Notes under the pieces: model-generated
Database searches by the model: none
Seen by the model: the letters and a program-made list of their open reading frames with translations, nothing else
What the model was told of the DNA's origin: nothing
IMG/VR virus record: IMGVR_UViG_3300028584_000124
Span: 1-41,273 of that record
Source of the DNA: a virus
Direction: 5' to 3' (one strand)
DNA length: 41,273 nucleotides
Translations under genes and position numbers: made by a program
In this document: positions 108 through 41,273 of the stretch, piece after piece
Layout: the number at the start of each line of letters is the position of its first letter
Numbering within the stretch: the stretch's first letter is position 1

Positions 108-1217
108 ATGGCTGTTCGACAGCGCGGCAAGACCTGGCAGGTGGACGTCAAAGTCCAGGGCCAGGACAACCCCACCGGGGAGCTGGTGCGGGTCCGGCAG
201 AACTTCAAGACCGAACGCGAGGCCATCCGCATGGAGCTGCTCATACGGGCGGACATCATGAGGACCGGCCGGTGGAGCCCAGAGCTAGAGGTCGAGGGCG
301 TCGTCCAGCTGAAGAACAAGCGCGCCGAGGGGACCCTCAAAGCCGCCCTGAAGCTGGCCTGGAGCCACCCCACCAAGGGCTGGCAGCACACCAAGGACGG
401 CAAGGGCCAACACCGCAACGCCGAGATGGTCGTGGAGTTTCTCGGCGAGGACACCCTGTGCATCGAGATCACCCACCTCGACTTCGACAGGGCTGCTGCC
501 TACTTCGCCGAGAAGCACAACAGCTCCGACACCGTCACCCGCAAGCTCCAGGCCTTCTACCGGGTCCTGTGGTTCGCCCAGCGGCAGGGCTGGATCAGAG
601 CCCGCCCAGAGTGGGACCGCCCGACACCTGGGAAGGCCCGAGAGTACATCTTCACGCCTGAAGTCGAGGCCGAGGTCATCGCGTACTTCCGCCACATCGA
701 AGGCAATGACGAGCTGGCCGATATGTTCAAGGTCGGCATCGAGACCGGCGGCCGACTTGGTGAGCTACTGGCCGCCCGCGTAGAGGACTGCTCCCTCACC
801 GACAGCTTTATGGTCATCTACGGCGCTGTCCGCGAGGACGGCCGGAGAGACACCAAGAACGCCGAGAGCCGCACCGTGATCCTCACCGACGCCGCCAAGG
901 AAGTCCTGGCCCAGCGCATCAAGGCCATCGGCAAGCGGGGCCTCCTGTTCCCCAACATGAACAGCGAGCACGTCAGCCGGGACATGCGTATGGCCAGGGA
1001 GCACATGGGCGAGGAAGGCAACACCGAGTTCGTCTTCCACGCCACCCGCCACACCTGCGGAACACGCATGGCCGAGCGGGGTGTCCCCCTGAACGACATG
1101 ATGGACCAGCTAGGCCACAAGACTGCGGCCATGACCCGCCGCTACATCAAGCTGTCACCTGCAGCCCGCCGCGCGACCATCCTAGCGGCCATGCAGCCAC
1201 GTCTCACGGGGTCCTAA
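108..1217 (+). CDS. int: tyrosine recombinase / phage integrase
   Basis: ATG 108 follows a GGAG that overlaps the upstream TAG. The C-terminal catalytic signature is HATRHTCGTRMAERG ... LGHKTAAMTRRY (HxxR ... Y). The ORF-track start at 60 overlaps the upstream gene and is rejected. Confidence 0.95.
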   Translation: MAVRQRGKTWQVDVKVQGQDNPTGELVRVRQNFKTEREAIRMELLIRADIMRTGRWSPELEVEGVVQLKNKRAEGTLKAALKLAWSHPTKGWQHTKDGKGQHRNAEMVVEFLGEDTLCIEITHLDFDRAAAYFAEKHNSSDTVTRKLQAFYRVLWFAQRQGWIRARPEWDRPTPGKAREYIFTPEVEAEVIAYFRHIEGNDELADMFKVGIETGGRLGELLAARVEDCSLTDSFMVIYGAVREDGRRDTKNAESRTVILTDAAKEVLAQRIKAIGKRGLLFPNMNSEHVSRDMRMAREHMGEEGNTEFVFHATRHTCGTRMAERGVPLNDMMDQLGHKTAAMTRRYIKLSPAARRATILAAMQPRLTGS

Positions 1218-1219
1218 CC

Positions 1220-1238
1220 GATTAGGTGGCATCTACGC
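1220..1238 (+). promoter_or_regulatory. motif B copy (GATTAGGTGGCATCTAC-GC), candidate phage-RNAP promoter
   Basis: Matches 14 of 17 positions of AATTGAGTGGCATCTAY, which also occurs at 5107, 15086 and 36615. It lies in the gap after int. Confidence 0.4.
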
Positions 1239-2140: not shown

Positions 2141-2260
2141 CGTGGCCCTGGCCGTGTCCCTTGAGGCCCCATCCGGTGGCCTTGAGGCCCTGGGGCCACA
2201 CCATAACCACTTGAAGTAACAGGAGAATTGCCCAGCCGTAGACGGACTTAAAATCCGGGG

Positions 2261-2281
2261 ATTGCACTTGCGCAATCGCTA
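2261..2281. promoter_or_regulatory. TTGCGCAA palindromic motif, site 1 of 10 (ATTGCACTTGCGCAATCGCTA)
   Basis: Core at 2268..2275, in the gap upstream of the RNAP gene. The sequence is identical to site 37415..37435 and is the exact reverse complement of 15068..15088. TTGCAC ... GCTATG flanks resemble -35/-10 elements. Confidence 0.6.
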
Positions 2282-2354
2282 TGTGGCCCCGAAGAAACTT
2301 AGCTAGTTCAATAGTTTGCCCACCACTCAGGTGGCTGACATCCGACGCGCATAC

Positions 2355-2411: not shown

Positions 2412-5084
2412 ATGACTGCCAACCAAGCCATGGTTGATCCCAGCCTGATGACCGCCCTCGACGAGATCACTGTCGAGCTTACCGACCCCGCCATGGACCG
2501 CCAGTTTGAGCTGGAGGCCGAGATGATCGAAGACGGACGCCACAAGTTCTGGGACCGCATGGAGCGCGCCCGCCCTGGAGTGGACGCGGAAGGCCGCGCC
2601 CGCGAAGGCGAAGAGAGCCGCGCCCCTACCTCCCAGTGCCTCATGCGTCTCTCGCTGAACCCAGTGAAGGACGGCATCGCCGCGTTCATCGCCGCCGCGT
2701 CCTCCGGGAAAGCTGGCCGCAAGCACGCCGCCCTGAAGCACCTGAAGCTGGTGGACCACGAGACCGCCGCCTTCCTGGCCCTCAAGTCCTGCCTCGACGC
2801 CTTCAGCCTGTCCCTTACCGAGGGGGTCCTGTGTGGACGCATCGGCCGCCTGATCGAAGACGAGGTCCGCCTCCGCATCTTCGAGGACAAGGCTGCGGGT
2901 CTGTTGCGCGCGATCCGCAGCCGCTTCGACACCAGCAACTTCAAGCACCACCGCCGGGTACTCAATGCCCTCGCCAAGAGGCACAATGTGGACCTGGGGG
3001 AGCGCTGGTCTGACGTCGAGGCCCTGCACGTCGGCGCTGCCCTCCTGACCCAGGTCATCGAGCGCACCGGCCTGTTTGAGATCGTGATGGTCCAGCGCGG
3101 AGGGGCCGACCGCCACGTCACCGTCCAGCCCACCGCAGCCACCGTGGCATGGGTCCAAGCCCGCGACGGCGCTGCCCAGTTCCTCCTGCCGACCTACATG
3201 CCGATGGTCGTCCAGCCCAAGCAGTGGACCTCGCCGACTGGTGGCGGCTACCGCTTCGGCCTGGCCCGCCGCCTCCGCATGGTCAAGAGCCGCAGCCCCG
3301 GCTATCAGGCCGAGCTGAAGGAGTGGGATATGCCCCTGGTGTACCGCGCTGTGAACGCGCTGCAGGACACGCCCTGGCAGGTGAACACGGACGTCCTCCG
3401 CTACCTGTCCCCTGCCGCGCGCGCAGGTCACGAGTTCGCTGGCCTCCCCTCCACCAAACAGGCCACCGTGCCGCCCGCCCCGGCTGGCATCCCCGCCGAC
3501 AAGGAGAAGCGCACCGAGGCACAGGCCCTGGCCCTCAACGCCTGGAAGTCGCAAGCCCGCGACATCCACGTGGAGAACATCCAGCGCCGCTCCAAGGGTC
3601 TCGTGGTGGCCCGCACCCTGGCCATCGCCGAGAAGTACGCGGAGGAGCCCTGCATCTACTTCCCGTACACCCTGGACTTCCGGGGCCGTGCCTACCCGGT
3701 GCCGTCCTTCCTCCAGCCGCAGGGCTGTGACTACCAGAAGGCCCTCCTGCGGTTCTCCAAGGGCAAGCCCCTCGGTGAGCAAGGCGCGGCCTGGTTGGCC
3801 ATCCACGGTGCCAACCTGATGGCGGACTGCCCTCTCTCCGGTGCGAAGCTCGACAAGGCTGCGCTCCAGACCCGAGTGGACTGGGTGTTCGCCAATGAGC
3901 ACCACATCGTGGCCGCAGCGGCTGACCCCGACGCCAGCGACTTCTGGCTGAAGGCAGGGGGCGGCGAGAGCTGCTGGCAGTTCCTGGCGTTCTGCTTTGA
4001 GTGGGCGGGCTACGTCCGCGAGGGGGCATCCTTCGAGAGCCGCCTCCCCATCGCCCTGGACGGCTCCTGCAACGGCCTCCAGCACTTCTCCGCCATGCTG
4101 CGGGATGAGGTGGGCGGTGCTGCCGTCAACCTCGTGGCCCACAAGCTGCCCGCCGACATCTACATGGAGGTCCGCAACGCCACCCTGGAGCAGATCAAGA
4201 TCGACGCCGCCTGTGCCCTCGTTGAGGTGCCGGACGCGCCGACCGACAAGGAAGCGCTGAAGGCCGAGGACAAGTCGTTCAAGGATATGCGCGCCCTGAA
4301 CGCCGACACCCACGCAGCCCGCGCCTGGATGGGCACCAACCAGCTGGACCGGGACCTGTGCAAGCAGCCTGTCATGACGATGCCCTACGGGTCCAAGCAG
4401 TTCGGCATCCGCCAGCAGCTCGCCCGCAAGCTCGCCAAGAGGGGCTTCGAGTTCATCGACCAGTCAACCGGGGAGGTCTCCGAGGGCTGGAACGAATGTG
4501 GCTACCTCTCCAAGGTCATCTGGGGAAGCCTCGGGTCCGTGGTCGTCAAGGCCCGCGAGGCGATGGACTGGCTCCAAGCCTGTGCCCGCCTGGCAGCCGC
4601 CGAGCAGCAGCCCATCAACTGGGTCACGCCGGACGGCTTCTGGGTCCAGCAGAACTACCGGGAGGCCCACCTGAAGAAGGTCAAGACCCAGGTCGCGGGC
4701 ACCCTGTTCTGGCCCCGAATGGCCGAGGAAGCCGACACCGTGGACAAGCTACGCCAGCAGAACGGCGTGGCTCCGAACTTCGTCCACTCCATGGATGCCA
4801 CCGCCATGCGCGCGTGCATCAACATGTCGTTGGACAACGGGATCGAGGACTTCGCCATGATCCACGACAGCTACGCGGTCCACGCCGCCGACACCGAGCT
4901 GTTCTACGACTGCATCCGCCAGAGCTTCATCGCGATGTACGAGCAGGAGGACGTGCTGGCCAACTTCAGGGCCAATCTGGAAGCCCAGCTCTCGGAAGAG
5001 AGTGTCGAGCTTCTCCCCGCCCCGCCGCTGCCGGGAACCCTTGATCTTCAGGGGATTGCCTGCTCGGACTTCTTCTTCGCCTAG
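2412..5084 (+). CDS. T7-like single-subunit DNA-dependent RNA polymerase
   Basis: 890 aa. Signatures are DGSCNGLQHFSAM, PVMTMPYGSKQFG, HDSYAV and a C-terminal SDFFFA (compare T7 DGSCSGIQHFSAM, IHDSFGT, DFAFA). ATG 2412 follows AAGGAA. The GTG at 2370 from the ORF track lies inside the GTGGCCCT repeats. Confidence 0.97.
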   Translation: MTANQAMVDPSLMTALDEITVELTDPAMDRQFELEAEMIEDGRHKFWDRMERARPGVDAEGRAREGEESRAPTSQCLMRLSLNPVKDGIAAFIAAASSGKAGRKHAALKHLKLVDHETAAFLALKSCLDAFSLSLTEGVLCGRIGRLIEDEVRLRIFEDKAAGLLRAIRSRFDTSNFKHHRRVLNALAKRHNVDLGERWSDVEALHVGAALLTQVIERTGLFEIVMVQRGGADRHVTVQPTAATVAWVQARDGAAQFLLPTYMPMVVQPKQWTSPTGGGYRFGLARRLRMVKSRSPGYQAELKEWDMPLVYRAVNALQDTPWQVNTDVLRYLSPAARAGHEFAGLPSTKQATVPPAPAGIPADKEKRTEAQALALNAWKSQARDIHVENIQRRSKGLVVARTLAIAEKYAEEPCIYFPYTLDFRGRAYPVPSFLQPQGCDYQKALLRFSKGKPLGEQGAAWLAIHGANLMADCPLSGAKLDKAALQTRVDWVFANEHHIVAAAADPDASDFWLKAGGGESCWQFLAFCFEWAGYVREGASFESRLPIALDGSCNGLQHFSAMLRDEVGGAAVNLVAHKLPADIYMEVRNATLEQIKIDAACALVEVPDAPTDKEALKAEDKSFKDMRALNADTHAARAWMGTNQLDRDLCKQPVMTMPYGSKQFGIRQQLARKLAKRGFEFIDQSTGEVSEGWNECGYLSKVIWGSLGSVVVKAREAMDWLQACARLAAAEQQPINWVTPDGFWVQQNYREAHLKKVKTQVAGTLFWPRMAEEADTVDKLRQQNGVAPNFVHSMDATAMRACINMSLDNGIEDFAMIHDSYAVHAADTELFYDCIRQSFIAMYEQEDVLANFRANLEAQLSEESVELLPAPPLPGTLDLQGIACSDFFFA

Positions 5085-5088
5085 AGCA

Positions 5089-5125
5089 TGTCGATTGCGC
5101 AATCGCAATTGAGTGGCATCTACGC
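5089..5125 (+). promoter_or_regulatory. composite site: TTGCGCAA motif (site 2) followed by motif B AATTGAGTGGCATCTAC-GC
   Basis: Palindrome core at 5095..5102 and motif B at 5107..5123, with a 12-nt offset identical to the 15068..15104 composite. It lies directly after the RNAP stop. Confidence 0.6.
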
Positions 5126-5798: not shown

Positions 5799-5802
5799 GC
5801 CG

Positions 5803-5822
5803 TAGCGATTGCGCAACCGCAA
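5803..5822. promoter_or_regulatory. TTGCGCAA palindromic motif, site 3 (TAGCGATTGCGCAACCGCAA)
   Basis: Core at 5809..5816, about 20 nt upstream of the SSB start. Confidence 0.6.
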
Positions 5823-5835
5823 CACAGAGAACCAC

Positions 5836-13236: not shown

Positions 13237-13237
13237 G

Positions 13238-14471: not shown

Positions 14472-15070
14472 GGCTCATCCACCTGGCTACCTGCCCGGTC
14501 ATGACCAAGACCACCCGCCCCGTGGTGTCCACCGGCGGCGACCCCTTCGGCGACACCGGAACGGAAGACCTCCGCCGAGGCGCTACAGCTACCCGCTTCC
14601 TCGACACGTCCATCGTTGCCGCGCATCTTGCCGGGGCCGAGCTGCTGAAGCGCTACACCGCCACGCAGGGCACCGCCGCCACGCGCTACCCGGACGACAA
14701 CCCCAAGACCATCCACGGGTTCGCCAAGCCGTCCATCTCCCTGGTCCCTCCCGTGGCTATCGTGGAGATGGCCAGGGCCTTCCGCCACGGCGCTGACAAG
14801 TACGGCCCCGCCAACTGGCGCGACAAGCCGGTCACCATCCAGACCTATATCGACGCCGCCTTGCGCCACCTGCTGGCCATCGCGGACGGCGAGGATGTGG
14901 ACCCGGAGAGCGGCTGCTTCCATGCCGCCCATGTCGCCAGCTGCATGGCGATCATCATGGACGCCAAGGCCAGCGGCACCCTTCAAGACCGCCGCCCCAC
15001 CCCCGGCCAGGCCGCCGAGCTGATCCGCCAGTACACCGCAGCCACCGCCCCTCCCACGCCCGCAGTGTAG
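14426..15070 (+). CDS. DUF5664-like (MazG-type all-alpha dATP/dGTP pyrophosphohydrolase-like) protein
   Basis: KPSISLVPPVAIVEMARAFRHGADKYGPANWRDK...YIDAALRHLLAIADGEDVDPESGCFHAAHVASCMAIIMD matches the remembered DUF5664 pattern (KP...L.PP.AL..LA.V..FGA.KYG..NW..G...Y..A..RHL.A...GE..D.ESG..HLAH). AAGGAG lies 9 nt before ATG 14426. An alternative start is at 14501. Confidence 0.6.
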   Translation: MGTRRTDCPHCGVGLGLIHLATCPVMTKTTRPVVSTGGDPFGDTGTEDLRRGATATRFLDTSIVAAHLAGAELLKRYTATQGTAATRYPDDNPKTIHGFAKPSISLVPPVAIVEMARAFRHGADKYGPANWRDKPVTIQTYIDAALRHLLAIADGEDVDPESGCFHAAHVASCMAIIMDAKASGTLQDRRPTPGQAAELIRQYTAATAPPTPAV

Positions 15071-15104
15071 CGATTGCGCAAGTGCAATTGAGTGGCATCT
15101 ATGC
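15068..15104 (+). promoter_or_regulatory. composite site: TTGCGCAA motif (site 4) followed by motif B AATTGAGTGGCATCTAT-GC
   Basis: Palindrome core at 15074..15081 and motif B at 15086..15102, with the same 12-nt offset as at 5089..5125. It lies at the boundary between the replication and structural modules. Confidence 0.6.
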
Positions 15105-15120
15105 ACGAGCACAGGACCTC

Positions 15121-18201: not shown

Positions 18202-18202
18202 G

Positions 18203-18819: not shown

Positions 18820-19033
18820 TCCAAGCCTGAGGGAGCGCTGCCCGCGCCCCACCAGGCCCACTGACAGCCCACTCCCGGTGGGACTACTCGCCGCCTTCTC
18901 CGTCAAACAGGAGGGGGCACTCTCGGTCTGCGAGGGCCGCAAGGACACTGCTGTCCGCGCCATCGAAGACCACAACGCCGCAGTCATGAAGCTCTCCAAG
19001 GACCTCCGCAAGAAGGTCTGGTGGAAGCTCTGA
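18686..19033 (+). CDS. o-spanin (Rz1-like outer-membrane lipoprotein), overlapped architecture
   Basis: It lies in the +1 frame relative to the i-spanin. Signal plus lipobox SLLMSLAAGLLVLTGC, with a Pro-rich mature N-terminus. Start candidates are 18680, 18686 and 18731. Confidence 0.65.
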   Translation: MPSLKLKAGLPRSLLMSLAAGLLVLTGCASKQLPPTPGLLLIQIDPSLRERCPRPTRPTDSPLPVGLLAAFSVKQEGALSVCEGRKDTAVRAIEDHNAAVMKLSKDLRKKVWWKL

Positions 19034-19042
19034 GGTTTCCCC

Positions 19043-19546: not shown

Positions 19547-19717
19547 ATGCCGCTCCCTAAATCATTCGGCTTGGCACGCGGCTGGGCCATGGCGGGGGGC
19601 GGCCTATCCGCTGTCCCCCAGAACACGGGTGGGGGGGCTGGTTCTCTGATCCTGCGGAACGGATCGGCGCTCATCTTGCGCAACGGCACACCCTACCAAT
19701 TGAGGAGCGCAGCATGA
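19547..19717 (+). CDS. hypothetical small protein with duplicated LILRNG motif
   Basis: ATG abuts the upstream TAG, and its TGA overlaps the next ATG (ATGA). It contains SLILRNGSALILRNG. Codon usage matches the following gene. Below the ORF-track cutoff. Confidence 0.4.
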   Translation: MPLPKSFGLARGWAMAGGGLSAVPQNTGGGAGSLILRNGSALILRNGTPYQLRSAA

Positions 19718-21083: not shown

Positions 21084-21182
21084 CCTGCGCCCATGCAGCC
21101 CGACTACCGGGACGCCATAGCGGCATCGCAAAGGGCAACACCATGACCACCCACAGCTGCCAGCTGCGAGGAGCAATCCCGC

Positions 21183-22178
21183 ATGGCCGATAAGTACATC
21201 ACAGACCTGGCATCGGCCACGGCCCTAGCGCCCACCGATGTCATGCTGGTCTCCCAAGGCAGCGCCACACCGAAGCGGGCGGCCCTCTCCCTCATCAAGA
21301 GCGCGCTGTTCGCCACGGGGTCCTTCACCCGCCAGCTGCTGGACGCCGGGTCCATCGCGAACGTCCGCACCCTGCTGGGTCTCGATGCGGTTCCCGGCGC
21401 AGCCTCCATGTCCAAGGGCCACATCTTCGGCCTCACCCTCTCGGTGAACACCGCCGCCCCCCTCTGGGCCATCAACGTCGAGGCTGGCCAGTGCCGGGAT
21501 AGCTCGGACACCTACGATCTCCGCCTGAACAGCGGCATGATCAAGGACCTGTCCACGATCTGGACCCCCGGAAGTGGCAGCGGCGGGCGGGACACGGGTG
21601 GCTCCGTGGTAGCGAACACCAGCTACCACGTCTTCCTCATCCGCAAGTCGTCGGACGGTAGCCTGGACATCCTCTTCTCCACGTCCGCGCTCGGGCCGCT
21701 GATGCCTTCCGGTTACGCCGCCCTCCGCCGCCTCGGCGCGGTCATGACGGACGCCACGGGGTACATCCGCAAGTTCACCCAGCACGGCAACTTCTTCCAG
21801 CTCGCAGACCGCACCGCTGACTACGCGGGTGTTGCCAACGGCGCTGGGCCGTACCTCCGCCAGATCGCCGTTCCGCGTGGCATCCCCATGCTGGCGCGTG
21901 TCTACCTTCAGAGCCAGGGCGGGCCTGGCGTGGTAACGACCTTCAGCGGTGTCTACGATCCTGCTCTGGGCGTCCCGCAGCTGGTCACGAACAAGCGGGC
22001 ACAAATCCGCCGCAACATCTTCAAGGACCAAGCCAGCGCCGACGCCAGCTATGGCATCTTCGACGGAGACGTCTGGACCGACAGCAACGCCCAGGTATAC
22101 ACGCACTCGGACAACACGGGCGACATCATCGCGCTGGGCACCTACGGGTGGACCGACGACCGGGGCCAGTTCCTGTGA
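21183..22178 (+). CDS. tail fibre / receptor-binding protein
   Basis: GAGGAG RBS. The N-terminus ITDLASATALAPTDVMLVSQGSATPKRA is the common phage fibre opening (I.DL..A..L...D...V.Q.G...K). Confidence 0.65.
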   Translation: MADKYITDLASATALAPTDVMLVSQGSATPKRAALSLIKSALFATGSFTRQLLDAGSIANVRTLLGLDAVPGAASMSKGHIFGLTLSVNTAAPLWAINVEAGQCRDSSDTYDLRLNSGMIKDLSTIWTPGSGSGGRDTGGSVVANTSYHVFLIRKSSDGSLDILFSTSALGPLMPSGYAALRRLGAVMTDATGYIRKFTQHGNFFQLADRTADYAGVANGAGPYLRQIAVPRGIPMLARVYLQSQGGPGVVTTFSGVYDPALGVPQLVTNKRAQIRRNIFKDQASADASYGIFDGDVWTDSNAQVYTHSDNTGDIIALGTYGWTDDRGQFL

Positions 22179-34779: not shown

Positions 34780-36507
34780 ATGAGCGACCTACCGACCCCC
34801 GGCGTGAGCCGACAGGTGCGGCGGGCCGAGGAGAGGACGGAGCAAAAGAGCTACCGTCTCTTCAAGAACTTCCTCGCCCGCGTGTGGCAGTTCCTGCGGC
34901 TCCCGTCGCCCACCCCCGTCCAGTACGACATCGCGGACTACCTGCAGTTCGGCCCCAAGCGTGCCGTCATCCAGGCTTTCCGTGGCGTCGGTAAGAGCTG
35001 GATCACCGCAGCCTTCGTGGTCTGGCTGCTGTACCGCGACCCCCAGAAGAAGATCATGGTCGTGTCCGCCTCCAAGGAGCGTGCCGACGCCTTCGCTATC
35101 TTCGTGAAGCGCCTGATCATGGAGATGCCCGAGCTGGCTTTCCTGATCCCCTCGCGGAGCCAGCGCACCTCCAACGTGGCCTTTGAAGTCGGCCCCGCCC
35201 AGGCGGACCAGTCGCCCTCCATGAAGTCGGTCGGCATCACCGGCCAGCTCACCGGCTCGCGCGCCCACGTCATCATCGCGGACGACATCGAGGTCCCCAA
35301 GAACTCCTTCACGGCCCCCATGCGGGAGAAGATCGCGGAGCTGATCAAGGAGTTCGACGCGGTGCTCAAGCCCGCCGAGGACTGCCCCGCCGACGAGCCG
35401 CCTCGCATCATCTACCTGGGAACCCCCCAGACTGAGATGTCGATCTACAACCGGCTCCCGGAGCGGGGCTACGAGATCAGAGTGTGGCCCGCCCGCATCC
35501 CCGTGGCCATGTCCAAGTACGAGGGGCGCATGGCCCCCTTCGTCCTGGCCCTCATGGCTGGCGGCAAGAAGGCCGGTGGCCCCACCGACATCATGCGGTT
35601 CACCGACGGCGACCTGGCCGAGCGCGAGCTGTCCTACGGCCGGTCGGGCTTCGCGCTCCAGTTCATGCTGGACACCAGCCTCTCCGACGCCGACCGCTAC
35701 CCGCTCAAGCTGGAAGACCTGATGGTCATGCCGCTGGACGCCGAGCGCGCTCCCATCTCCATGGCCCACGGCAAGGACCCCAGGAAGAACGCCCTGGATG
35801 ACCTCTCCCCTGTGGGCTTCACCGGGGACGCCTACTGGGCACCCATGTGGATGGATGAGGTCTACGGCCTCTACACCGGCAGCGTCCTCGCCGTCGACCC
35901 CTCCGGCCGTGGACAGGATGAGACCGGCTACGCTGTCATCAAGCAGCTCAACGGTCGCCTCTTCCTGCTGGCGTCCGGTGGTCTCCGAGGAGGGGCCACC
36001 CCCGAGAACCTGGCCTTCCTCGCCAAGGTCGCCCAGAAGCACAAGGTCAATGCCATCCGCCTGGAGGTGAACTTCGGTGACGGCATGTGGGGCCAACTGT
36101 TCCGACCTGTCCTCGCCTCCATCTGGCCCTGCACCGTCGAGGAGTTTCGCTCCGTCGGTCAGAAGGAAACCCGGATCATCGACACCCTGGAGCCCATCGT
36201 CCAGCAGCACAGGCTGGTGGTGGACCGGGCGGTGATCGAGGAGGACCTTCGCGTTGATGACCCGAAGTACAGCCTCTTCTGGCAGTTCTGCAGGATCACC
36301 AAGGAGCGCCACTCGATAGCCCACGACGACCGCCTGGAAGCCCTCCAGATGGCCGTGGACTACTGGCTGGAGCGAATGTCCGTCGATGAGAACAAGGCCG
36401 CTGACGCCCACCGTGAGGCCCTCCTTGATGAGGTCCTGGCCATGTTCGAAGACGATGCAGGATTGGACAGTGTCAGGAGTGGCCCCCAGAACTGGTCTGG
36501 GGCCTAG
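34780..36507 (+). CDS. terminase large subunit, T7 gp19-like
   Basis: QAFRGVGKSWITAAFVVWLLYRDPQKKIMVVSASKERADA, PSMKSVGITGQLTGSRAHVIIADDIEVP, IIYLGTPQTEMS, GFALQFMLDTSLSDADRYPLKL, DPSGRGQDETGYAV, NFGDGMWG and AHDDRLEAL all parallel T7 gp19. Confidence 0.96.
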   Translation: MSDLPTPGVSRQVRRAEERTEQKSYRLFKNFLARVWQFLRLPSPTPVQYDIADYLQFGPKRAVIQAFRGVGKSWITAAFVVWLLYRDPQKKIMVVSASKERADAFAIFVKRLIMEMPELAFLIPSRSQRTSNVAFEVGPAQADQSPSMKSVGITGQLTGSRAHVIIADDIEVPKNSFTAPMREKIAELIKEFDAVLKPAEDCPADEPPRIIYLGTPQTEMSIYNRLPERGYEIRVWPARIPVAMSKYEGRMAPFVLALMAGGKKAGGPTDIMRFTDGDLAERELSYGRSGFALQFMLDTSLSDADRYPLKLEDLMVMPLDAERAPISMAHGKDPRKNALDDLSPVGFTGDAYWAPMWMDEVYGLYTGSVLAVDPSGRGQDETGYAVIKQLNGRLFLLASGGLRGGATPENLAFLAKVAQKHKVNAIRLEVNFGDGMWGQLFRPVLASIWPCTVEEFRSVGQKETRIIDTLEPIVQQHRLVVDRAVIEEDLRVDDPKYSLFWQFCRITKERHSIAHDDRLEALQMAVDYWLERMSVDENKAADAHREALLDEVLAMFEDDAGLDSVRSGPQNWSGA

Positions 36508-36614
36508 CGTACCACCCCCAGTCCCACCGGAAGACTTACTGCCAGCTAAGGCCGGGGGAGGACCCTGGATAGGCTGCTAGATGACCCCTGCTCCTGACCT
36601 ACAGGAGGAGGATC

Positions 36615-36633
36615 AATTGGGTGGCATCTATGC
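36615..36633 (+). promoter_or_regulatory. motif B copy (AATTGGGTGGCATCTAT-GC), candidate phage-RNAP promoter near the right end
   Basis: 16 of 17 positions match the 5107 and 15086 copies. It lies ~110 nt after the terminase stop, analogous in position to T7 phiOR. Confidence 0.5.
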
Positions 36634-36672
36634 CAGGGTCCTCTCTATGTGGGTACTGTAAGTGGCTATCTG

Positions 36673-36840
36673 AGTGGCACTGATCGAGATGCAGAGGGTG
36701 GTTCCCGAGGGGGAGGAAGGTCATGGTCCTCCCCCTATTGCCCATACCATCCAAGTCACCACGCCATGACCACAGGCAGTCCAACGCCTGGCTTGACTGG
36801 AGGTGGCTCTGCCGGGGATACCCCCTAGTGGCACTGATCG
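36673..36840 (+). repeat. direct repeat AGTGGCACTGATCG (2 copies, 154 bp apart) within a cluster of GTGGC-type motifs
   Basis: Identical 14-mers occur at 36673..36686 and 36827..36840. Related sequences are AGTGGCTATCTGAGTGG at 36661 and GGTGGCTCTG at 36802. Confidence 0.8.
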
Positions 36841-37169
36841 GACATGCCCCCAAGCTCTAGGCCTCGGCTCACCTTGGGGGTTTCCCGGATGTATTTTTGG
36901 TAGAGATTTGTCAGGGGTCATGATCAAACAGGATCGCGCGATGACCCCCCCGGCCCCCCTCCTTGACCCACATAGGGCCACAACTAGGGGAACATTCTGG
37001 GCCACGCGCCTGAATAGCTCAATGAATACAAGGGTTCGCGTCGGATAAGTAGTCCGATGGTGTGGCCCTAGTGGGTCAATGGGTCTATCTGACATTTCAG
37101 TTGAGGCGCGCGTCTTCGGTGGGGTGTAAAGGGTCCTTGTCATCTGACCACTGGTAGACCACACAAAGC

Positions 37170-37339
37170 GCCACGCAATGACCACGCCCAGACCACGGGA
37201 AGATGGACGCCCAGCACCACGCCCAGCCCCACAATACCCTACTCGCACAGTAGGACATCAAGCCATCCTTATGCCTACCGATCTAGTGGGGTATGACTGA
37301 CTGTCTCTTTTCGTGGTCACCTAGTGGTCATTGCGTGGC
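37170..37339. repeat. 16-bp perfect inverted repeat GCCACGCAATGACCAC / GTGGTCATTGCGTGGC
   Basis: Arms at 37170..37185 and 37324..37339. A third, direct 14/15 copy CCACGCCATGACCAC is at 36759..36773. Confidence 0.8.
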
Positions 37340-37414
37340 CCTGCTGGACCTTGTGACAGCCCGTCAAGCCTTACGGTGCGGGCGTCTGTCTGTTTTCTTT
37401 CATCGGATATGCAG

Positions 37415-37435
37415 ATTGCACTTGCGCAATCGCTA
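37415..37435. promoter_or_regulatory. TTGCGCAA palindromic motif, site 5 (ATTGCACTTGCGCAATCGCTA); candidate leftmost early promoter/operator
   Basis: Core at 37422..37429. The 21-mer is identical to site 1. TTGCAC and GCTATG flank the palindrome. It is the first site upstream of the early gene block. Confidence 0.6.
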
Positions 37436-37591
37436 TGGGTTCGATAGACAGTCAATACCGGACGGCGGAGACGCCAACCGGGCGGGGCTCCAGGGCCTCG
37501 GGTCTTTGACATTGTGAAGAGGTCGCGGGGTTCTAGCCTCGCCTGATGAGCCCTAGCAGGGCGAAACCTCAACCTTATTGCGCCTCAAGCC

Positions 37592-37612
37592 TAGCGCTTG
37601 CGCAATTGCAAT
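37592..37612. promoter_or_regulatory. TTGCGCAA palindromic motif, site 6 (TAGCGCTTGCGCAATTGCAAT)
   Basis: Core at 37598..37605, immediately upstream of the GGAG RBS and start of the first early gene. A half-site-like TTGCGCC lies ~20 nt upstream. Confidence 0.6.
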
Positions 37613-37624
37613 CGGAGCATGACC

Positions 37625-38032
37625 ATGGGCGACAACGTCGCAATCCTCGCGGGCTTCACCACGGAGCTTGAAGGCTCCAATGACCGGGGCGACATCGCGT
37701 TCCTGCTGGTCGAGCCCGCCACCGACTTGGACGGCACGTTCCGCGCTTGGGACATGGATGCGCAAGGGTTCATCCGCGTGGATGGCTGGCGCTGGACCTT
37801 CGATACGATGGCTGATCACCGCCCGGTGGAACTGGCCGTCCAATGCGTCCCGCCCGGTGGCGAGGAACCCGCGTCGTTCCTCTTTCGGAGGTCGCCGGGT
37901 CAGACGATCAGGGAAGGCGAGCTTGTCTCCCCTACCTTTGACAGCCTCGCGACGCTCTTCCCGTGGTGCACGGCGAACGGCTGGGCAAGCACGGGAGGCC
38001 TTGGCTGCACCTTCCGCAAGGTGGCCGCCTAG
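37625..38032 (+). CDS. first early protein, acidic N-terminal half, function unknown
   Basis: GGAG lies 8 nt before ATG 37625 (alternative ATG at 37619). High GC3. It occupies the position of T7 gene 0.3, but no sequence similarity is recognised. Confidence 0.6.
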   Translation: MGDNVAILAGFTTELEGSNDRGDIAFLLVEPATDLDGTFRAWDMDAQGFIRVDGWRWTFDTMADHRPVELAVQCVPPGGEEPASFLFRRSPGQTIREGELVSPTFDSLATLFPWCTANGWASTGGLGCTFRKVAA

Positions 38033-38035
38033 ACC

Positions 38036-38056
38036 ATTGCACTTGCGCAATCACCA
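38036..38056. promoter_or_regulatory. TTGCGCAA palindromic motif, site 7 (ATTGCACTTGCGCAATCACCA)
   Basis: Core at 38043..38050. The left arm is identical to sites 1 and 5, and the right arm is degenerate. Confidence 0.55.
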
Positions 38057-38057
38057 A

Positions 38058-38115
38058 GCCCCTCGCCCAGTCCCACGGGCGGGGGCCTCCCTCTCAAGCT
38101 CCCGGATTGACCGGG
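38058..38115 (+). repeat. modular intergenic stem-loop element, copy 1
   Basis: Hairpin GCCCCTCGCCC / GGGCGGGGGC (38058..38086), CT-rich spacer CTCCCTCTCAAGCT, then hairpin CCCGG-ATTGA-CCGGG (38101..38115). Confidence 0.6.
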
Positions 38116-38138
38116 GGTTTCAATAGGAGGCCCTAGAG

Positions 38139-38285
38139 ATGACAGCTTACGAAAAGACGTGCCGACGGGAGATTGCGGCACAAGCAAACCTTGTGGCCGT
38201 GAGTAAGACCCCCGCGCACAAGAAGCACCACAAGGCTTGCTTGCATGGATGGGAAGCGGAACTGCGCAAGGAGCTTGCCCGGTGA
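38139..38285 (+). CDS. hypothetical small basic protein (48 aa)
   Basis: AGGAGG lies 9 nt before ATG 38139. Its stop overlaps the next GTG start (GTGA). Below the ORF-track cutoff. Confidence 0.5.
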   Translation: MTAYEKTCRREIAAQANLVAVSKTPAHKKHHKACLHGWEAELRKELAR

Positions 38286-38659
38286 CCCGCCGTATCAAAG
38301 CAACCGTGACAGTCGCCATTCCCACGCCAGACGGCCCAGCCCGGCCTGTTGAAGCGGAAGCCTATCTGACCCGCGAAGACAGCCGCTGGGCCGCTACACG
38401 CCAGCCGGGCGGGACCTATTGGACCCTCACACACCGGGGGTCTGGAATGGGCCTTAGCTCGATCCTCCCGCCGACTAAGAGAAGCCAACAGGTCAACACC
38501 GTGCGCGCCGCTATCGCCGCATGGGAAGCGCACGCGGAACTGGACCTAAGCGCCTTCGACCGACTTACGACGCTTGGCCAAGGCTTCGACGGCTTCCCGC
38601 CTCCCCGCGACGTCATCGCCACTATGCGCACGCTCGCCGCTCAAGCCGGGATCGCCTAG
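38282..38659 (+). CDS. hypothetical protein
   Basis: GTG 38282 is coupled to the upstream stop. 125 aa, high GC3. Confidence 0.55.
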   Translation: MTRRIKATVTVAIPTPDGPARPVEAEAYLTREDSRWAATRQPGGTYWTLTHRGSGMGLSSILPPTKRSQQVNTVRAAIAAWEAHAELDLSAFDRLTTLGQGFDGFPPPRDVIATMRTLAAQAGIA

Positions 38660-38676
38660 TCCCACTCCCCGTCAAG

Positions 38677-38733
38677 CTCCCGGCCTCACAAGCCGGGGGC
38701 TCCCTCTCAAGCCGCAGGGATTGGCTTTGCGGC
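38677..38733 (+). repeat. modular intergenic stem-loop element, copy 2
   Basis: Hairpin CTCCCGGC / GCCGGGGG (38677..38699), spacer CTCCCTCTCAAGC (the same 13-mer as copy 1), then hairpin GCCGCAGGG-ATTGG-CTTTGCGGC (38711..38733). Confidence 0.6.
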
Positions 38734-38752
38734 TTCAATCGGAGCCCCTCCA

Positions 38753-39025
38753 ATGCGTCAAGCTATCGTCACCAAGTGGCACGGCCCTACCAACTACAGC
38801 GGCTCGCGTATCAAGGCCAAGGCTGCAGCGGGGTCTATCACCGTCCCGTGGGACTACGCCTTGAACGTCGCAGACAACCACACAGCCGCCGCCCGCGCCC
38901 TCGTTGAGAAGCTCGAATGGGCGGGGGTCTGGTCGGGCGGCGGGATGCCCAGCGGTGACGGCTATGTCTTCGTTGACGCGTCGGGGGCGGAGCCCTTCAC
39001 CGGCACTCCCGCGCCCCGCGCGTAG
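38753..39025 (+). CDS. hypothetical protein
   Basis: GGAG RBS. 90 aa (MRQAIVTKWHGPTNYSGSRIKAKA...). High GC3. Confidence 0.6.
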   Translation: MRQAIVTKWHGPTNYSGSRIKAKAAAGSITVPWDYALNVADNHTAAARALVEKLEWAGVWSGGGMPSGDGYVFVDASGAEPFTGTPAPRA

Positions 39026-39042
39026 CGGTTGCGCAATCGCCC
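39023..39042. promoter_or_regulatory. TTGCGCAA palindromic motif, site 8 (TAGCGGTTGCGCAATCGCCC)
   Basis: Core at 39029..39036. The site starts on the stop codon of the upstream gene. Confidence 0.55.
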
Positions 39043-39147
39043 TACCGCCTGATGAGGCCCCCGGACGCGGGCCGAAACTGCCCCCACGCAATCCAATGGG
39101 GCGCAGTCGCGGAAGTCCTTTCGCATGACCCACAACAGGAGAACCCC

Positions 39148-39291
39148 ATGTTCATCATCACCGACGCCCGCACCGGCCGTCCCCTCGGCTTGTCGTCCTA
39201 CAAGTGCCGCAAGCTCGCCAGGGTCGCGGCGCAAGCCCTCGCCGACGCCCTGGGCCAGCGGCTCGAAGTCCGTAGCGTCGGGGAGCGTTGA
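39148..39291 (+). CDS. hypothetical small protein (47 aa), TDxRTGRP motif
   Basis: AGGAG RBS. MFIITDARTGRPLG... shares its N-terminal motif, and a 22/23-nt DNA match, with the next gene. Confidence 0.5.
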   Translation: MFIITDARTGRPLGLSSYKCRKLARVAAQALADALGQRLEVRSVGER

Positions 39292-39293
39292 AC

Positions 39294-39491
39294 ATGGAGG
39301 CCGATACCGTCCTGACCGACACCCGCACCGGCCGTCCTGTGCGCCTGGCCGACACCGTCTGTGCGGACACCGGACGAAAGCACACGCTGCTGGGCTACTC
39401 GCAAGGCCACATTCTTCTCGCGGACAGGGACGGCGTTTTGAGGCGGGAGCGCTGCGCCTTCGTGGGGCTGGAAGTCCGCCAGAACACCTAA
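39294..39491 (+). CDS. hypothetical small protein (65 aa), TDxRTGRP motif
   Basis: GGGGAG precedes ATG 39294 (MEADTVLTDTRTGRPVRL...). The ORF-track TTG at 39288 is less likely. Confidence 0.5.
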   Translation: MEADTVLTDTRTGRPVRLADTVCADTGRKHTLLGYSQGHILLADRDGVLRRERCAFVGLEVRQNT

Positions 39492-39507
39492 AGCCCACCA
39501 ATGGAGC

Positions 39508-39562
39508 GCCTCCGGCCTAACCCGCCGGGGGCCTTTCCTTCCAGCCTCTGGGATTGTCCCAG
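39508..39562 (+). repeat. modular intergenic stem-loop element, copy 3
   Basis: A 9-bp hairpin GCCTCCGGC / GCCGGGGGC (39508..39532), CT-rich spacer CTTTCCTTCCAGCC, then hairpin CTGGGA-TTG-TCCCAG (39548..39562). Confidence 0.6.
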
Positions 39563-39588
39563 GCGCTGCATCGAGAGGCTCACACACC

Positions 39589-40134
39589 ATGACCACCCAA
39601 AGCCCCATCCGCCTGTCCCGCGAAGAACTGACCGCGCTGGACCCGTGCGACCAAGACCGCCGCCTGGCCCTGTTTGGCCGCAGGAAGTACCTCACGGCCC
39701 GACTGGCGATGGAAGCCGGGGCGACTGTGAGTGATCTATTGTGGGTCGCTGGACGACTTGGGCGCAAAGACCTGTGCGTGAAGTTCGCCCTGGCCTGTGC
39801 CCAGCGGACGGCCCACCTCAACCCAGACCAGCGTGTCCAAGCAGCGTTGGACGCCACGGCGGCTTGGCTTGCCAATCCTTGCGAGGACACCCAGTCGGCG
39901 GCGTGGTCGGCGGCGGAGGCGGCGTGGTCGGCGGCGAGGTCGGCGGAGGCGAGGTCGGCGGCGGAGGCGGCGTGGTCGGCGGCGGCGAGGTCGGCGGCGG
40001 AGGCGGCGTGGTCGGCGGCGAGGTCGGCGGAGGCGAGGTCGGCGGCGGAGGCGGCGTGGTCGGCGGCGGAGGCGGCGTGGTCGGCGGAGCAAGAGGAACA
40101 GAAGGTCATCTTCCTGTCGATCTTCGACGCCTAG
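39589..40134 (+). CDS. early protein with C-terminal AAWSAA(E/R) tandem repeats
   Basis: 181 aa. A helical N-terminal domain is followed by 65 residues composed only of A, S, W, E and R (SAAWSAAEAAWSAARSAEARSAAEAAW...). Confidence 0.7.
   Translation: MTTQSPIRLSREELTALDPCDQDRRLALFGRRKYLTARLAMEAGATVSDLLWVAGRLGRKDLCVKFALACAQRTAHLNPDQRVQAALDATAAWLANPCEDTQSAAWSAAEAAWSAARSAEARSAAEAAWSAAARSAAEAAWSAARSAEARSAAEAAWSAAEAAWSAEQEEQKVIFLSIFDA
39895..40089 (+). repeat. in-frame tandem repeat built from five codons (TCG, GCG, TGG, GAG, AGG)
   Basis: It has 21-nt (GCGGCGGAGGCGGCGTGGTCG) and 48-nt units. All six frames are open across it, which accounts for the spurious Arg/Gly/Pro-rich ORFs in the track. 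Confidence 0.9.
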
Positions 40135-40138
40135 CCCA

Positions 40139-40159
40139 TAGCGCTTGCGCAACTGCAAG
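40139..40159. promoter_or_regulatory. TTGCGCAA palindromic motif, site 9 (TAGCGCTTGCGCAACTGCAAG)
   Basis: Core at 40145..40152, a few nt after the stop of the repeat-protein gene. Confidence 0.55.
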
Positions 40160-40162
40160 ACA

Positions 40163-40222
40163 CCCTCGGTTCCACATGGAGCCGGGGGCCTTCTGTCCCA
40201 GCCGCTGGACACCCCAACGGCT
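40163..40222 (+). repeat. modular intergenic stem-loop element, copy 4
   Basis: Hairpin CCCTCGG / CCGGGGG (40163..40188), CT-rich spacer CCTTCTGTCCC, then a weaker hairpin AGCCG / CGGCT (40200..40222). Confidence 0.5.
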
Positions 40223-40241
40223 GCGCTTGGAGGCCCTCACC

Positions 40242-40358
40242 ATGAACACAAACCTCATCAACCGCTTGCCGCTTCTAGCCCTGGAGTTCCTCGTGATCTC
40301 CCTCGGCTTTGCCGCCTGGATCGCCTTCGTGGTCGTCCTAGCGAGTGCGTGCGGTTGA
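40242..40358 (+). CDS. small single-TM membrane protein (38 aa)
   Basis: GGAGG lies 8 nt before ATG 40242. Sequence MNTNLINRLPLLALEFLVISLGFAAWIAFVVVLASACG. Confidence 0.5.
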   Translation: MNTNLINRLPLLALEFLVISLGFAAWIAFVVVLASACG

Positions 40359-40736
40359 CCTAGCGTCTGGCGTACCGCTGCTCGCTAATGGGCAGCTCCG
40401 CCACAAACGTTAACGGGTACGACCGCTTTCGGCGCAGGATCATGAGAATACTCGGTCACCGCGTAGGCGGGGGTGGCATACAACCACACCCTGTCCTAGC
40501 GTGCGATTTCTCAGCGGTCTTAGCGTGGTCTCTCGGCTCCGCCACTATTGGCCAATGCTGGGGGGTATTATTGTGAAAGCGAGAAGAAACTGTGCGTAAA
40601 CACACAAGTCGGGACTTCTATATTTCCCTATTCGGCCTATCGGCCCACGTGGAGTTCCACGGGTGGACCGGGGGATGGGCCTTCACCCGCAGAGCGTCCT
40701 ACTTGCACATTGCGGGGGGATGCTTCAATGCTCACC

Positions 40737-40760
40737 TATCGCAATCGCGCAATCGCAAGC
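40737..40760. promoter_or_regulatory. TTGCGCAA-family motif, site 10 (TATCGCAATCGCGCAATCGCAAGC; core TCGCGCAA)
   Basis: Core at 40745..40752 with one mismatch, ~30 nt upstream of the MarR-like start. CGCAAT is repeated in tandem around the core. Confidence 0.5.
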
Positions 40761-40790
40761 GCGTCACCGTCGAAGAGTGGATCGCTGCCA

Positions 40791-41117
40791 ATGGCAACCA
40801 AAGACGTGAACCTGAAGGCCCAGCAACTCAGTAGGGTCATGGAGGCGCTTCTCTCCCTGGATGGCAATATGCCCGTCATCCAGGGTCTCATCTTTCTCTA
40901 CGTCGCATCTCAGGATCGCGGAACGGGTACTGGGCCGAACGGCCTGGCCATCGCCGAGGCCTTAAAGATCGACGCCACCCGCGTCTCCCGCAACCTGACC
41001 CGCCTCACCAGCGCCGGTCTCATCGCGCGGGAGATGGGGGACATGGGGCAGAAGCGGAACCACATCACCAAGGCCGGATGGTCCTACGTGGAGCGTCTAG
41101 CCTCCTTCATCAACTAG
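40791..41117 (+). CDS. MarR-like winged-helix transcriptional regulator (candidate prophage repressor)
   Basis: 108 aa. LAIAEALKIDATRVSRNLTRLTSAGLIAREM...RNHITKAGWSYVE has the MarR-type recognition helix plus wing layout. Its stop lies 8 nt before the int start. The longer ORF-track start (40548) would place motif site 10 inside coding sequence. Confidence 0.6.
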   Translation: MATKDVNLKAQQLSRVMEALLSLDGNMPVIQGLIFLYVASQDRGTGTGPNGLAIAEALKIDATRVSRNLTRLTSAGLIAREMGDMGQKRNHITKAGWSYVERLASFIN

Positions 41118-41125
41118 GAGCTGAC

Positions 41126-41273
41126 ATGGCTGTTCGACAGCGCGGCAAGACCTGGCAGGTGGACGTCAAAGTCCAGGGCCAGGACAACCCCACCGGGGAG
41201 CTGGTGCGGGTCCGGCAGAACTTCAAGACCGAACGCGAGGCCATCCGCATGGAGCTGCTCATACGGGCGGACA
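41126..41273 (+). CDS. int: integrase gene, 5' end only (exact copy of 108..255)
   Basis: It is part of the 255-bp window-end overlap and is truncated by the window edge. Confidence 0.9.
   Translation, partial: MAVRQRGKTWQVDVKVQGQDNPTGELVRVRQNFKTEREAIRMELLIRAD

Follow-up and report, generated by a model that had tools for sequence, protein, structure and literature searches.

Dispersed inverted repeats, most likely operators of a lysogeny-control circuit, in a temperate T7-like phage of Caulobacter-type bacteria

The DNA of 41,273 nucleotides (nt) in the IMG/VR virus record IMGVR_UViG_3300028584_000124, which we analyzed at full length and call the window, belongs to a temperate T7-like phage whose nearest relatives are prophages of Caulobacter and Phenylobacterium. 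Its intergenic regions carry repeated copies of a nearly palindromic element with the core TTGCGCAA, and these are most likely the operators of a lysogeny-control circuit in a phage of Caulobacter-type bacteria. We consider it very probable that the elements are protein-binding operators, a reading largely supported by their enrichment, their placement, their synteny in related phages and one case of co-variation. The candidate binder is a MarR-like winged-helix protein of 108 amino acids (aa) encoded beside the integrase gene. That this protein occupies the sites and acts as a repressor seems to us rather likely, its identity as the binder, the stoichiometry and repression by binding being what we infer from comparison of sequences.

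The core occurs ten times exactly in the window, against 0.45 ± 0.67 copies expected, and none of 100 dinucleotide shuffles reached that number (the maximum was three). An earlier inspection of the letters, called here the sequence-only reading, had listed nine of the ten positions, each correctly, and had overlooked the copy at 19676. The one-mismatch copy that it gave, TCGCGCAA at 40745, is real, and the motif stands above shuffled controls, but the span 37415–40760 to which it assigned the element holds only six of the twelve sites. Ten copies, once turned the same way, can be aligned gap-free. They give a 22-nt quasi-palindromic consensus, aTAGCGA-TTGCGCAA-kyGCAAT, with ten invariant columns and a further six conserved in 90% or more of the copies. 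The arms are nearly symmetric, with a single fixed asymmetry of TAGC on one side and TTGC on the other. The perfect 16-bp palindrome GCGATTGCGCAATCGC that had been put forward has no exact copy in the window, the best copies having one mismatch. The 21-mers at 2261–2281 and 37415–37435 are, as claimed, identical to each other and to the reverse complement of 15068–15088, and the first two agree over 24 nt (GATTGCACTTGCGCAATCGCTATG).

Divided into four tetramers, TAGC-ga-TTGC/GCAA-ky-GCAA, the element is best read as a pair of interdigitated TWGC-N6-GCAA inverted repeats, shifted by 6 bp against each other, whose overlap yields the TTGCGCAA core. The functional unit is probably this 14-bp repeat and not the 8-mer that had been assumed. 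Three related loci described below (L014, L010 and L012) keep the N6 repeat without TTGCGCAA, so the N6 unit would be the common denominator and the 8-mer a by-product of the overlap. The 10 bp between half-site centers fits a winged-helix dimer on successive major grooves. Within the window TTGC-N6-GCAA is present nine times against 0.40 expected, and TWGC-N6-GCAA gives 26 strand-matches against 1.56. All but one of 18 exact units lie in the intergenic 10.5% of the genome, and the sole exception, at 28104, is probably a chance match. The N6 scan also found an intergenic single-unit site at 21118, and the total number of sites is twelve (Table 1).

Six of the 22-mers begin on a stop codon or 3 nt past one. 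The TAG of the motif had been described as the stop codon of the upstream gene; this holds at two sites (15068 and 39023), and four others start 3 nt past the stop. Since every copy stands upstream of a + strand gene, the element might be a promoter, either of a second class used by the phage RNA polymerase (RNAP) or a host-RNAP promoter with a −35-like TTGC for each downstream gene. TTGCAC and TTGCGC do resemble −35 hexamers, and the oriented consensus of about 21 nt has a length like that of T7-type promoters. Yet three of the ten aligned copies (2268, 37422 and 38043) are inverted with respect to the rest although all genes are on the + strand, in keeping with the earlier view of an operator used in both orientations rather than a directional promoter. 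No conserved −10 follows the element, and consensus scans of 36400–41273 and 1–6000 found no σ70-like site at any copy. A σ70 operator-over-promoter layout had been suggested at 2261 and 37415, but TTGCAC and GCTATG are there 10 bp apart, against a criterion of 16–18 bp. Moreover, the motif at 37591 ends 6 nt before a start codon. Caulobacter promoters follow the consensus TTGACGS-N10-14-GCTANAWC; we also considered a promoter of that type at the copies, and rejected it on a manual check because the spacings were too short. To our knowledge, no σ54, CtrA, LexA or CcrM site fits the element.

The promoter role appears instead to be filled by motif B, ATT-R-R-GTGGCATCTAY-G, which on its sequence is the predicted promoter of the phage RNAP. 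Its core GTGGCATCTAYG is found exactly at 1226, 5113, 15092 and 36621, all on the + strand, and as a 19-mer it has four copies in one orientation, three of them within one mismatch. A search allowing three mismatches gives three copies; the fourth, at 1219 directly past the integrase stop, was found by reading the sequence. Its kinship with the T3-like promoters found repeatedly in the relatives is clear, and with its four copies motif B displaces the suggestion that the TTGCGCAA element is itself an unusual promoter family. It lies immediately 3′ of two copies of the element, which are indeed fused to its upstream edge as had been noticed (5088 and 15067). At these copies (5095 and 15074) the element places its right GCAA at roughly −19 to −16 relative to motif B, and a start site directed by the element would fall inside another promoter. 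We regard a promoter function for the element as very unlikely.

A further argument for operators comes from comparison with relatives, whose loci (designated L; Pasto is L031) were taken around RNAP homologues. In their phage parts all exact TTGC-N6-GCAA copies are intergenic, and one-mismatch N6 copies are strongly over-represented in the intergenic 6–16% of the relatives' sequence. The search for the motif in related integrase-bearing T7-like genomes that the sequence-only reading had proposed was thus fruitful: relatives with 58–67% RNAP identity keep the N6 inverted repeat at positions syntenic with those of the window, even where the 8-mer core is absent. There are four such positions (Table 1). 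The first lies just past the attachment-site (att) core, upstream of the RNAP gene, where the copy noted earlier is confirmed 129 nt upstream of that gene; a one-mismatch site, TTGCACTTGCGAAA, is at the same position as operator 7 in L029 (7425), a phage of the TWTC type described below. The second, directly past the RNAP stop, abuts a promoter in the window and is no more than 10 nt upstream of one in L012, L013 and L014 (3–9 nt in L014 and L012); no promoter follows the corresponding L010 site at 11729. The third precedes the gene for a gp2.5-like single-stranded DNA-binding protein (SSB). At the fourth, upstream of the MarR-like gene, the copy that had been reported, which lies 31 nt away, has its TCGCGCAA core conserved in the relatives.

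The att cores of integrated relatives are tRNA anticodon-arm sequences, with loops that are tRNA-Ser-like in L014 and tRNA-Leu-like in L010 and the window, and L013 lies directly past selA/selB, the expected location of selC. In these integrated relatives the operator is 4–12 nt past the att core, and the prophage genes begin with that for the RNAP. Transcription of the interrupted host tRNA gene would therefore enter the RNAP gene, and such read-through could explain the constant presence of a site past the att core. Only tetramers at fixed spacing are kept amid diverged intergenic DNA, which indicates that the recognition sequence is likely to have been under selection.

These comparisons also bear on two other explanations. 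The element is palindromic, transcribed and placed between cistrons, and it might be a hairpin in polycistronic mRNA serving as a processing site, stabilizer or translational operator; T7 early intergenic regions do carry RNase III hairpins. In the alignment of the element, however, 71.6% of cells pair against 74.4% in column shuffles, with one double change. Among the nine distinct sequences columns 3 and 20 always read A.A, six fail to form another of the pairs, and the central GCGC would need to be a loop. As pairing is no better than in the shuffles, it is the sequence that is conserved and not the pairing, and the relatives likewise keep the tetramers but not the ability to pair. Better, separate G+C-rich hairpins are already present 3′ of the motif in the early intergenic regions, and an Rfam scan of the window returned the tRNA only. 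We find an RNA-level role scarcely credible.

Alternatively the elements might mark the edges of gene cassettes that move or recombine, comparable to the promoter-stem-loop cassettes known from T4-type phages, and might have multiplied through duplication without being retained for binding. Part of their upstream context recurs (CGCCTAG-nCCA stands ahead of two sites, at 38026 and 40128), the motif and hairpins border every early gene, and 24 nt are identical at 2260 and 37414. Such an origin does not account well for syntenic positions across phages whose intergenic DNA is otherwise diverged and in which only the fixed-spacing tetramers are kept. It could be compatible with operator function; as an explanation in its own right we hold it to be highly improbable.

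If the elements are operators, the question is what binds them. The first 255 nt of the window are identical to the last (1–255 and 41019–41273), which makes it an assembly of 41,018 bp that is circular (or terminally redundant). In it the MarR-like gene, the integrase gene, the tRNA and the RNAP gene form one contiguous block; through the duplicated ends, the MarR-like gene and the beginning of the integrase gene each appear twice (position 108 = 41126). The MarR-like protein is the only regulator in this lysogeny module, its gene being immediately 5′ of that for the integrase. The order winged-helix gene, integrase, RNAP is also present in L010, L012, L015, L029 and Pasto. An exhaustive HMMER search of 1.84 billion representatives gave 14 relatives of the protein at E ≤ 1e-3. 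A word-based protein search with the winged helix-turn-helix (wHTH) protein returned only the query, a scan of the genome collection with the wHTH alignment gave only the Caulobacter segnis locus, and tblastn found no match in 50,697 GenBank phage records. One family member (P0127) is encoded at 1041–1376 of L016, a bacterial contig where it is flanked by gatA- and gatB-like genes and no phage genes are close by; the small wHTH family is therefore not confined to T7-like prophages.

All 14 family representatives match PF12802 (MarR_2), with a best E of 4e-13, and the family profile matches MarR structures at E = 2e-7. An AlphaFold model (mean predicted local distance difference test, pLDDT, 86.6) is a winged helix, with helices at residues 2–23, 29–41, 51–58, 62–74 and 94–104 and a β hairpin at 78–92, and thus has the N-terminal helix, helix-turn-helix (HTH), β-wing and following helix of the wHTH fold. 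In a Foldseek search of the PDB the top 11 matches and 48 of the top 50 were MarR-family chains (including MepR, Rv1404, MarR and SlyA; TM-scores 0.56–0.76, with 0.65–0.76 for the leading matches), ranks 12 and 47 being ArsR chains. In the recognition helix R64, S66 and R67 are invariant in the family, and N68 is present in at least 90% of its members. Aligned with Pasto gp7, the family profile gives an hhalign probability of 91.8% (E = 7e-7, identity 21%), and both have VSRN in the helix; the protein is a distant homologue of gp7. Given the 10-bp half-site spacing and the co-variation of helix and half-site, it would bind palindromic DNA as a dimer.

That co-variation is seen in the phage represented by L015, L029 and L030, whose RNAP is 60% identical to that of the window. 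The recognition helix of its MarR-like protein (P0131) reads RTSRIL, compared with RVSRNL in the window protein. There is no exact TTGC-N6-GCAA over 15 kb of this phage. TWTC-N6-GAAA is found at four sites in L029 (six matches on both strands, against 0.26 strand-matches expected), all of them intergenic, and the two that precede early genes share the four-tetramer architecture of the window. That helix and half-site change together is suggestive, not conclusive. If they do, P0131 would favor TATCGCCATCGAAACCGAAA over the window sites, and reciprocally, and one or two helix residues could be enough to shift the specificity (RVSRNL with TWGC, RTSRIL with TWTC).

The same comparison is relevant to the possibility that the operators are genuine and the binder is a different protein: the PF14090 HTH protein (7901–8170), an early protein that shuts off early transcription in lytic growth, or a host regulator. 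Enrichment, intergenic placement and synteny are silent on the identity of the binder, the MarR-like protein is atypically short, and a PF14090 protein is present in every relative. The 10-kb elements of L010 and L011 keep the sites together with both the MarR-like and the PF14090 proteins and so do not discriminate. But in L029 the half-site changes with the MarR-like helix, whereas the PF14090 HTH segment is virtually unchanged (almost identical in the window and L030) and does not track the half-site, and in three phages there is a conserved site 5′ of the MarR-like gene. Another binder is in our view unlikely, though it deserves serious consideration.

With the MarR-like protein as repressor, the circuit may be pictured as follows. 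In the prophage its dimers would occupy the sites, two dimers to each double site. At the head of the early operon and between the early cistrons they would form a roadblock to host RNAP, and at the site past the att core they would stop transcription, including host tRNA read-through, from entering the RNAP gene. Two of the phage promoters, at 5106 and 15085, would be covered by them at the 5′ edge, from about −29 to −16, and the dimers would autoregulate the MarR-like/integrase operon. Ribosomes and RNAP cooperate during elongation, and we speculate that a roadblock may be effective right past stop codons, where RNAP would be without a trailing ribosome. The fullest form of this proposal, a genome-wide network in which pairs of truncated MarR-like dimers on interdigitated operators past stop codons control both host RNAP and phage RNAP promoters, is offered tentatively; we think it possible rather than probable.

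A number of observations weigh against this interpretation. The 8-mer is exact even where one N6 unit has decayed (5095, 38043 and 39029), which a two-dimer model does not need. The window protein itself scores 24 bits against PF12802, where the cut-off is 27; its model is without the last dimerization helix (α6), and it is about 35 residues shorter than a typical MarR protein of some 140–150 aa (the target chains have 135–147 aa). The VSRN motif is also present in Pasto gp7, but the evident palindromes of that phage are GTGAC-N6-GTCAC, within and beside an eight-copy repeat that is a T3-like promoter; the site can therefore not be predicted from helix identity alone. The co-variation is a single lineage and a single evolutionary event. 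Two of the four phage promoters (1219 and 36614) are without an operator, although the L010 counterpart of promoter 1219 does have one adjoining. Lastly, no credible host promoter can be placed at most sites, so roadblock action is something that we infer.

Table 1. Coordinates of putative operators, predicted promoters and other features of the window, and of corresponding features in related loci
Feature	Position	Strand or orientation	Sequence or architecture	Context
Operator 1	37415..37436	reverse	double unit, ATTGCAC-TTGCGCAA-TCGCTAT	early-region head, 182 nt 5′ of first early gene; just 3′ of terminator-like hairpin (37378–37393); shares 24 identical nt with 2260–2283
Operator 2	37591..37612		double unit	ends 6 nt before ATG 37619 of first early gene, whose ribosome-binding site lies within these 6 nt
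Operator 3	38036..38057	reverse	one unit intact	3 nt past stop of gene 37619–38032
Operator 4	39022..39043		left unit TAGC-N6-GCAA intact, right arm decayed	TAG is the stop of gene 38753–39025
Operator 5	40138..40159		double unit	3 nt past stop of gene 39589–40134
Operator 6	40738..40759		variant core TCGCGCAA	31 nt 5′ of MarR-like gene; candidate autoregulation site
Operator 7	2261..2282	reverse	double unit	129 nt 5′ of RNAP gene; 4 nt past att core
Operator 8	5088..5109			3 nt past RNAP stop; right GCAA at about −19 to −16 of next promoter
Operator 9	5802..5823		double unit	12 nt 5′ of gp2.5-like SSB gene
Operator 10	15067..15088		double unit	TAG is the stop of gene 14468–15070; abuts promoter copy 3
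Weak site	19676..19689		exact TTGCGCAA core, poor arms (TTGC-N6-GCAC)	24 nt 5′ of gene 19714–21018; membership doubtful
Single-unit site	21118..21131		TAGCGGCATCGCAA	intergenic; 51 nt 5′ of gene 21183–22178
att core-like sequence	2244..2256	+	GGACTTAAAATCC	resembles tRNA-Leu anticodon arm
Phage promoter copy 1	1219..1237	+	CGATTAGGTGGCATCTACG	directly past integrase stop; no adjacent operator
Phage promoter copy 2	5106..5124	+	CAATTGAGTGGCATCTACG	predicted +1 is G5124
Phage promoter copy 3	15085..15103	+	CAATTGAGTGGCATCTATG	ahead of structural genes
Phage promoter copy 4	36614..36632	+	CAATTGGGTGGCATCTATG	non-coding stretch past terminase gene; no operator
Candidate host promoter	40703..40732	+	TTGCAC-N18-AATGCT	putative, for MarR-like/integrase operon
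Non-coding stretch	36.5–37.6 kb
Small early genes	37619–40358	+
Low-GC non-coding stretch	40363–40790		G+C below surroundings	between early genes and winged-helix gene
MarR-like winged-helix protein gene	40791..41117	+	108 aa	candidate repressor
Tyrosine integrase gene	108..1217	+		starts 9 nt past MarR-like gene
tRNA-Leu(UAA)	1268–1352	minus
T7-type single-subunit RNAP gene	2412..5084	+
gp2.5-like SSB gene	5836–6537	+		followed by endonuclease I and amidase
PF14090 HTH protein	7901–8170
Downstream genes				primase/helicase, split DNA polymerase, structural genes, terminase, in this order
Position (i)	window 2262/2268; L013 9847; L014 4105; L010 8923		L013 TTGCGCAATCGCAA; L014 TTGCACAAGTGCAA; L010 TTGCGATATCGCAA	few nt past att core, 5′ of RNAP gene
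Position (ii)	window 5095; L014 6819; L012 7119; L013 12573; L010 11729			directly past RNAP stop
Position (iii)	window 5809; L014 7701; L012 7994		one-mismatch sites in L014 and L012	before SSB gene
Position (iv)	window 40745; L010 17402; L008		always TCGCGCAA-nn-GCAA	5′ of MarR-like gene
L029 TWTC site			TTTCGATGTCGAAA	past RNAP stop, 5 nt 5′ of promoter
L029 TWTC site				upstream of MarR-like gene
L029 TWTC sites (two)			TATC-gc-CATC/GAAA-cc-GAAA	about 15 nt before start codons of two early genes
L012 promoter			AATTAACTGGCCCAyTAGAGA	4 copies
L014 promoter			GGGATTACCCTGGCCTATAG
L029 promoter			GGATTAGGTTGGCCTAGAGA
L010 promoter			GCAATTArGTTGCCGCTwAG
L013 promoter			CATTTAGGTGGCGTCTACG

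The window has a G+C content of 64.6%, and its convincing genes are all on the + strand. Megablast and blastn found no close GenBank phage at the DNA level. The nearest RNAPs, with 58–81% identity, come from Caulobacter segnis, Phenylobacterium and metagenomes; RNAP scans of IMG/VR and JGI metagenomes returned only relatives at ≤38% identity. Among cultured phages, Rhizobium phages, LUZ100 and Pasto come closest by RNAP, with 36–40% identity (LUZ100 38%, Pasto 36%).

The candidate host promoter at 40703..40732, which may serve the MarR-like/integrase operon, was found by inspection and missed by the consensus scan; its −35-like cTTGCA is conserved in L010 and L008. The only E. coli-type σ70 match of the region is at 40597–40624, in the low-GC stretch.

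Around the att core-like sequence there are six copies of GTGGCCC within 250 bp (2142–2390), and 29 genome-wide against 14.2 expected. Similar clusters flank the att core in L010 (19185–19250 and 9020–9045), and they are probably the arm-type integrase binding sites of the phage attachment site, attP. Just past the integrase gene is a complete tRNA-Leu on the minus strand, antisense to transcription from promoter 1219–1237. It is kept in every relative that covers the region (L010 18958–19042, L012 4163–4247, L015 1699–1784 and Pasto 8491–8573) and may be a replacement for the host tRNA gene broken by integration.

A second set of repeats lies 3′ of the operators in the early intergenic regions (38058–38138, 38660–38752, 39505–39588 and 40165–40241). 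One is a G+C-rich hairpin that ends in CCGGGGGC, after which comes CTCCCTCTCAAGC; the other hairpin has a GGGATTG loop and stands just ahead of the ribosome-binding site. These hairpins may be RNA processing or stability elements, by analogy with the RNase III sites of the T7 early region. Within early gene 39589–40134 there is an in-frame tandem array (39894–40087) with periods of 21, 36, 48 and 84 nt (98% matches at 84), which encodes a repetitive segment rich in Ala, Glu, Trp, Ser and Arg. The non-coding stretch at 36600–37400, after the terminase gene, contains promoter copy 4, two copies of AGTGGCACTGATCG (36673 and 36827), further GTGGCCC and a pair of 38-nt repeats, about 74% identical and 412 nt apart (36746 and 37158); it is probably a genome-end region or a replication origin. 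The family A DNA polymerase gene appears to be split (10469–13438): the open reading frame (ORF) 10469–12031, of 520 aa, covers only the first part of PF00476 and is followed by an endonuclease VII-like ORF, 12106–12612 (PF02945), possibly encoding a homing endonuclease. In relatives one gene of 694–704 aa encodes the polymerase.

L010 (about 8913–19300), L011 and L008/L009/L019 (the last three in Caulobacter segnis) are integrated elements of 10 kb flanked by the 14-nt repeat GGACTTAAAATCCG, coming from two independent samples together with a degraded copy in C. segnis. They carry a T7-type RNAP, an amidase, the PF14090 HTH protein, a 756-aa protein with no Pfam match, a GDSL lipase, the MarR-like protein, an integrase, tRNA-Leu, the operators and phage promoters, and are without primase, DNA polymerase and structural genes. 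They could be decayed prophages or satellite-like elements with their own single-subunit RNAP. L020/L021 (contig JGI10211J34971_10000054, 78.7 kb) is a more distant T7-like phage with two RNAP copies about 41.4 kb apart, probably assembled as a two-unit concatemer.

T7-like phages were long taken as strictly lytic, and the analysis bears on how lysogeny may be set up and kept in them. It provides an explicit and testable circuit: a 108-aa protein, a 14-bp unit and a map of 12 sites, of which two are fused to phage promoters. If it is right, one small protein controls two unrelated polymerases. The natural specificity variant in the sister phage (TWGC against TWTC) would permit a swap, and the several new RNAP/promoter pairs with a matching upstream repressor site would be orthogonal parts for switchable T7-style expression in Alphaproteobacteria.

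As short conserved intergenic elements in a T7-like genome, the sites recall promoters of the T7/T3 type, from which they differ in occurring in both orientations and in leaving the promoter role to motif B. They are closer to the operators of the MarR family, such as E. coli marO (TTGCC-N2-GGCAA), that of SlyA (TTAGCAAGCTAA) and the MepR sites. Some MarR proteins fill adjacent or overlapping sites as two dimers, and autoregulation is typical. The window shares with these operators an inverted repeat of T-T/A-G-C-type half-sites of the kind bound by a winged-helix dimer. It differs in the N6 spacing, in a candidate binder of 108 aa without the last helix, and in a proposed role in prophage maintenance, with no sign of ligand-responsive control of a neighboring operon.

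The closest functional analogue would be the stoperators of Cluster A mycobacteriophages (L5, with its repressor gp71, and Bxb1). There many repressor sites lie in short intergenic gaps near stop codons, within transcription units, and are thought to silence the prophage by blocking elongation. The window similarly has 12 sites dispersed in short intergenic regions, six of them within 4 nt of a stop. Stoperators are asymmetric 13–14-bp sequences in one orientation to transcription, bound by an HTH repressor that is not of the MarR family. In these respects the analogy does not hold: the window sites are quasi-palindromic, three of ten are inverted, the candidate binder is MarR-like, and two sites are on promoters of a phage single-subunit RNAP.

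The sequence-only reading knew of no described circuit of this kind, but a MarR-like regulator has been proposed to control the lysis/lysogeny decision of temperate T7-like phages (PMC10134795), and is hypothesized to repress the RNAP through sites flanking the promoter 5′ of its gene (Boeckman et al. 2022, as cited in PMC10134795). The concept, as that citation gives it, is already proposed, and the circuit in the window does not amount to a novel type of system. The LUZ100 work did not find stable lysogens, and in it repressor binding is a hypothesis (PMC10134795). The window and the Pasto/LUZ100 module have in common the order of early genes, winged-helix regulator, tyrosine integrase and RNAP, and, so far as the cited account goes, the proposed logic of repressing RNAP expression through sites near a promoter; Pasto also has the minus-strand tRNA-Leu between the integrase and RNAP genes. 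They differ in that the window has about 12 sites, distributed over the early operon and the SSB gene, with two abutting middle and late phage promoters, and in that its RNAP-gene site comes after the att core instead of flanking the phage promoter at 1219. The interdigitated double architecture and the TWGC half-site would be specific to the Caulobacterales group. Current ideas are thus not overturned. The proposed model is filled in and extended by some 12 sites that reach the early operon and the SSB gene, by direct fusion to promoters ahead of the middle and late genes, and by interdigitated double units, a conserved att-core site and a natural specificity variant.

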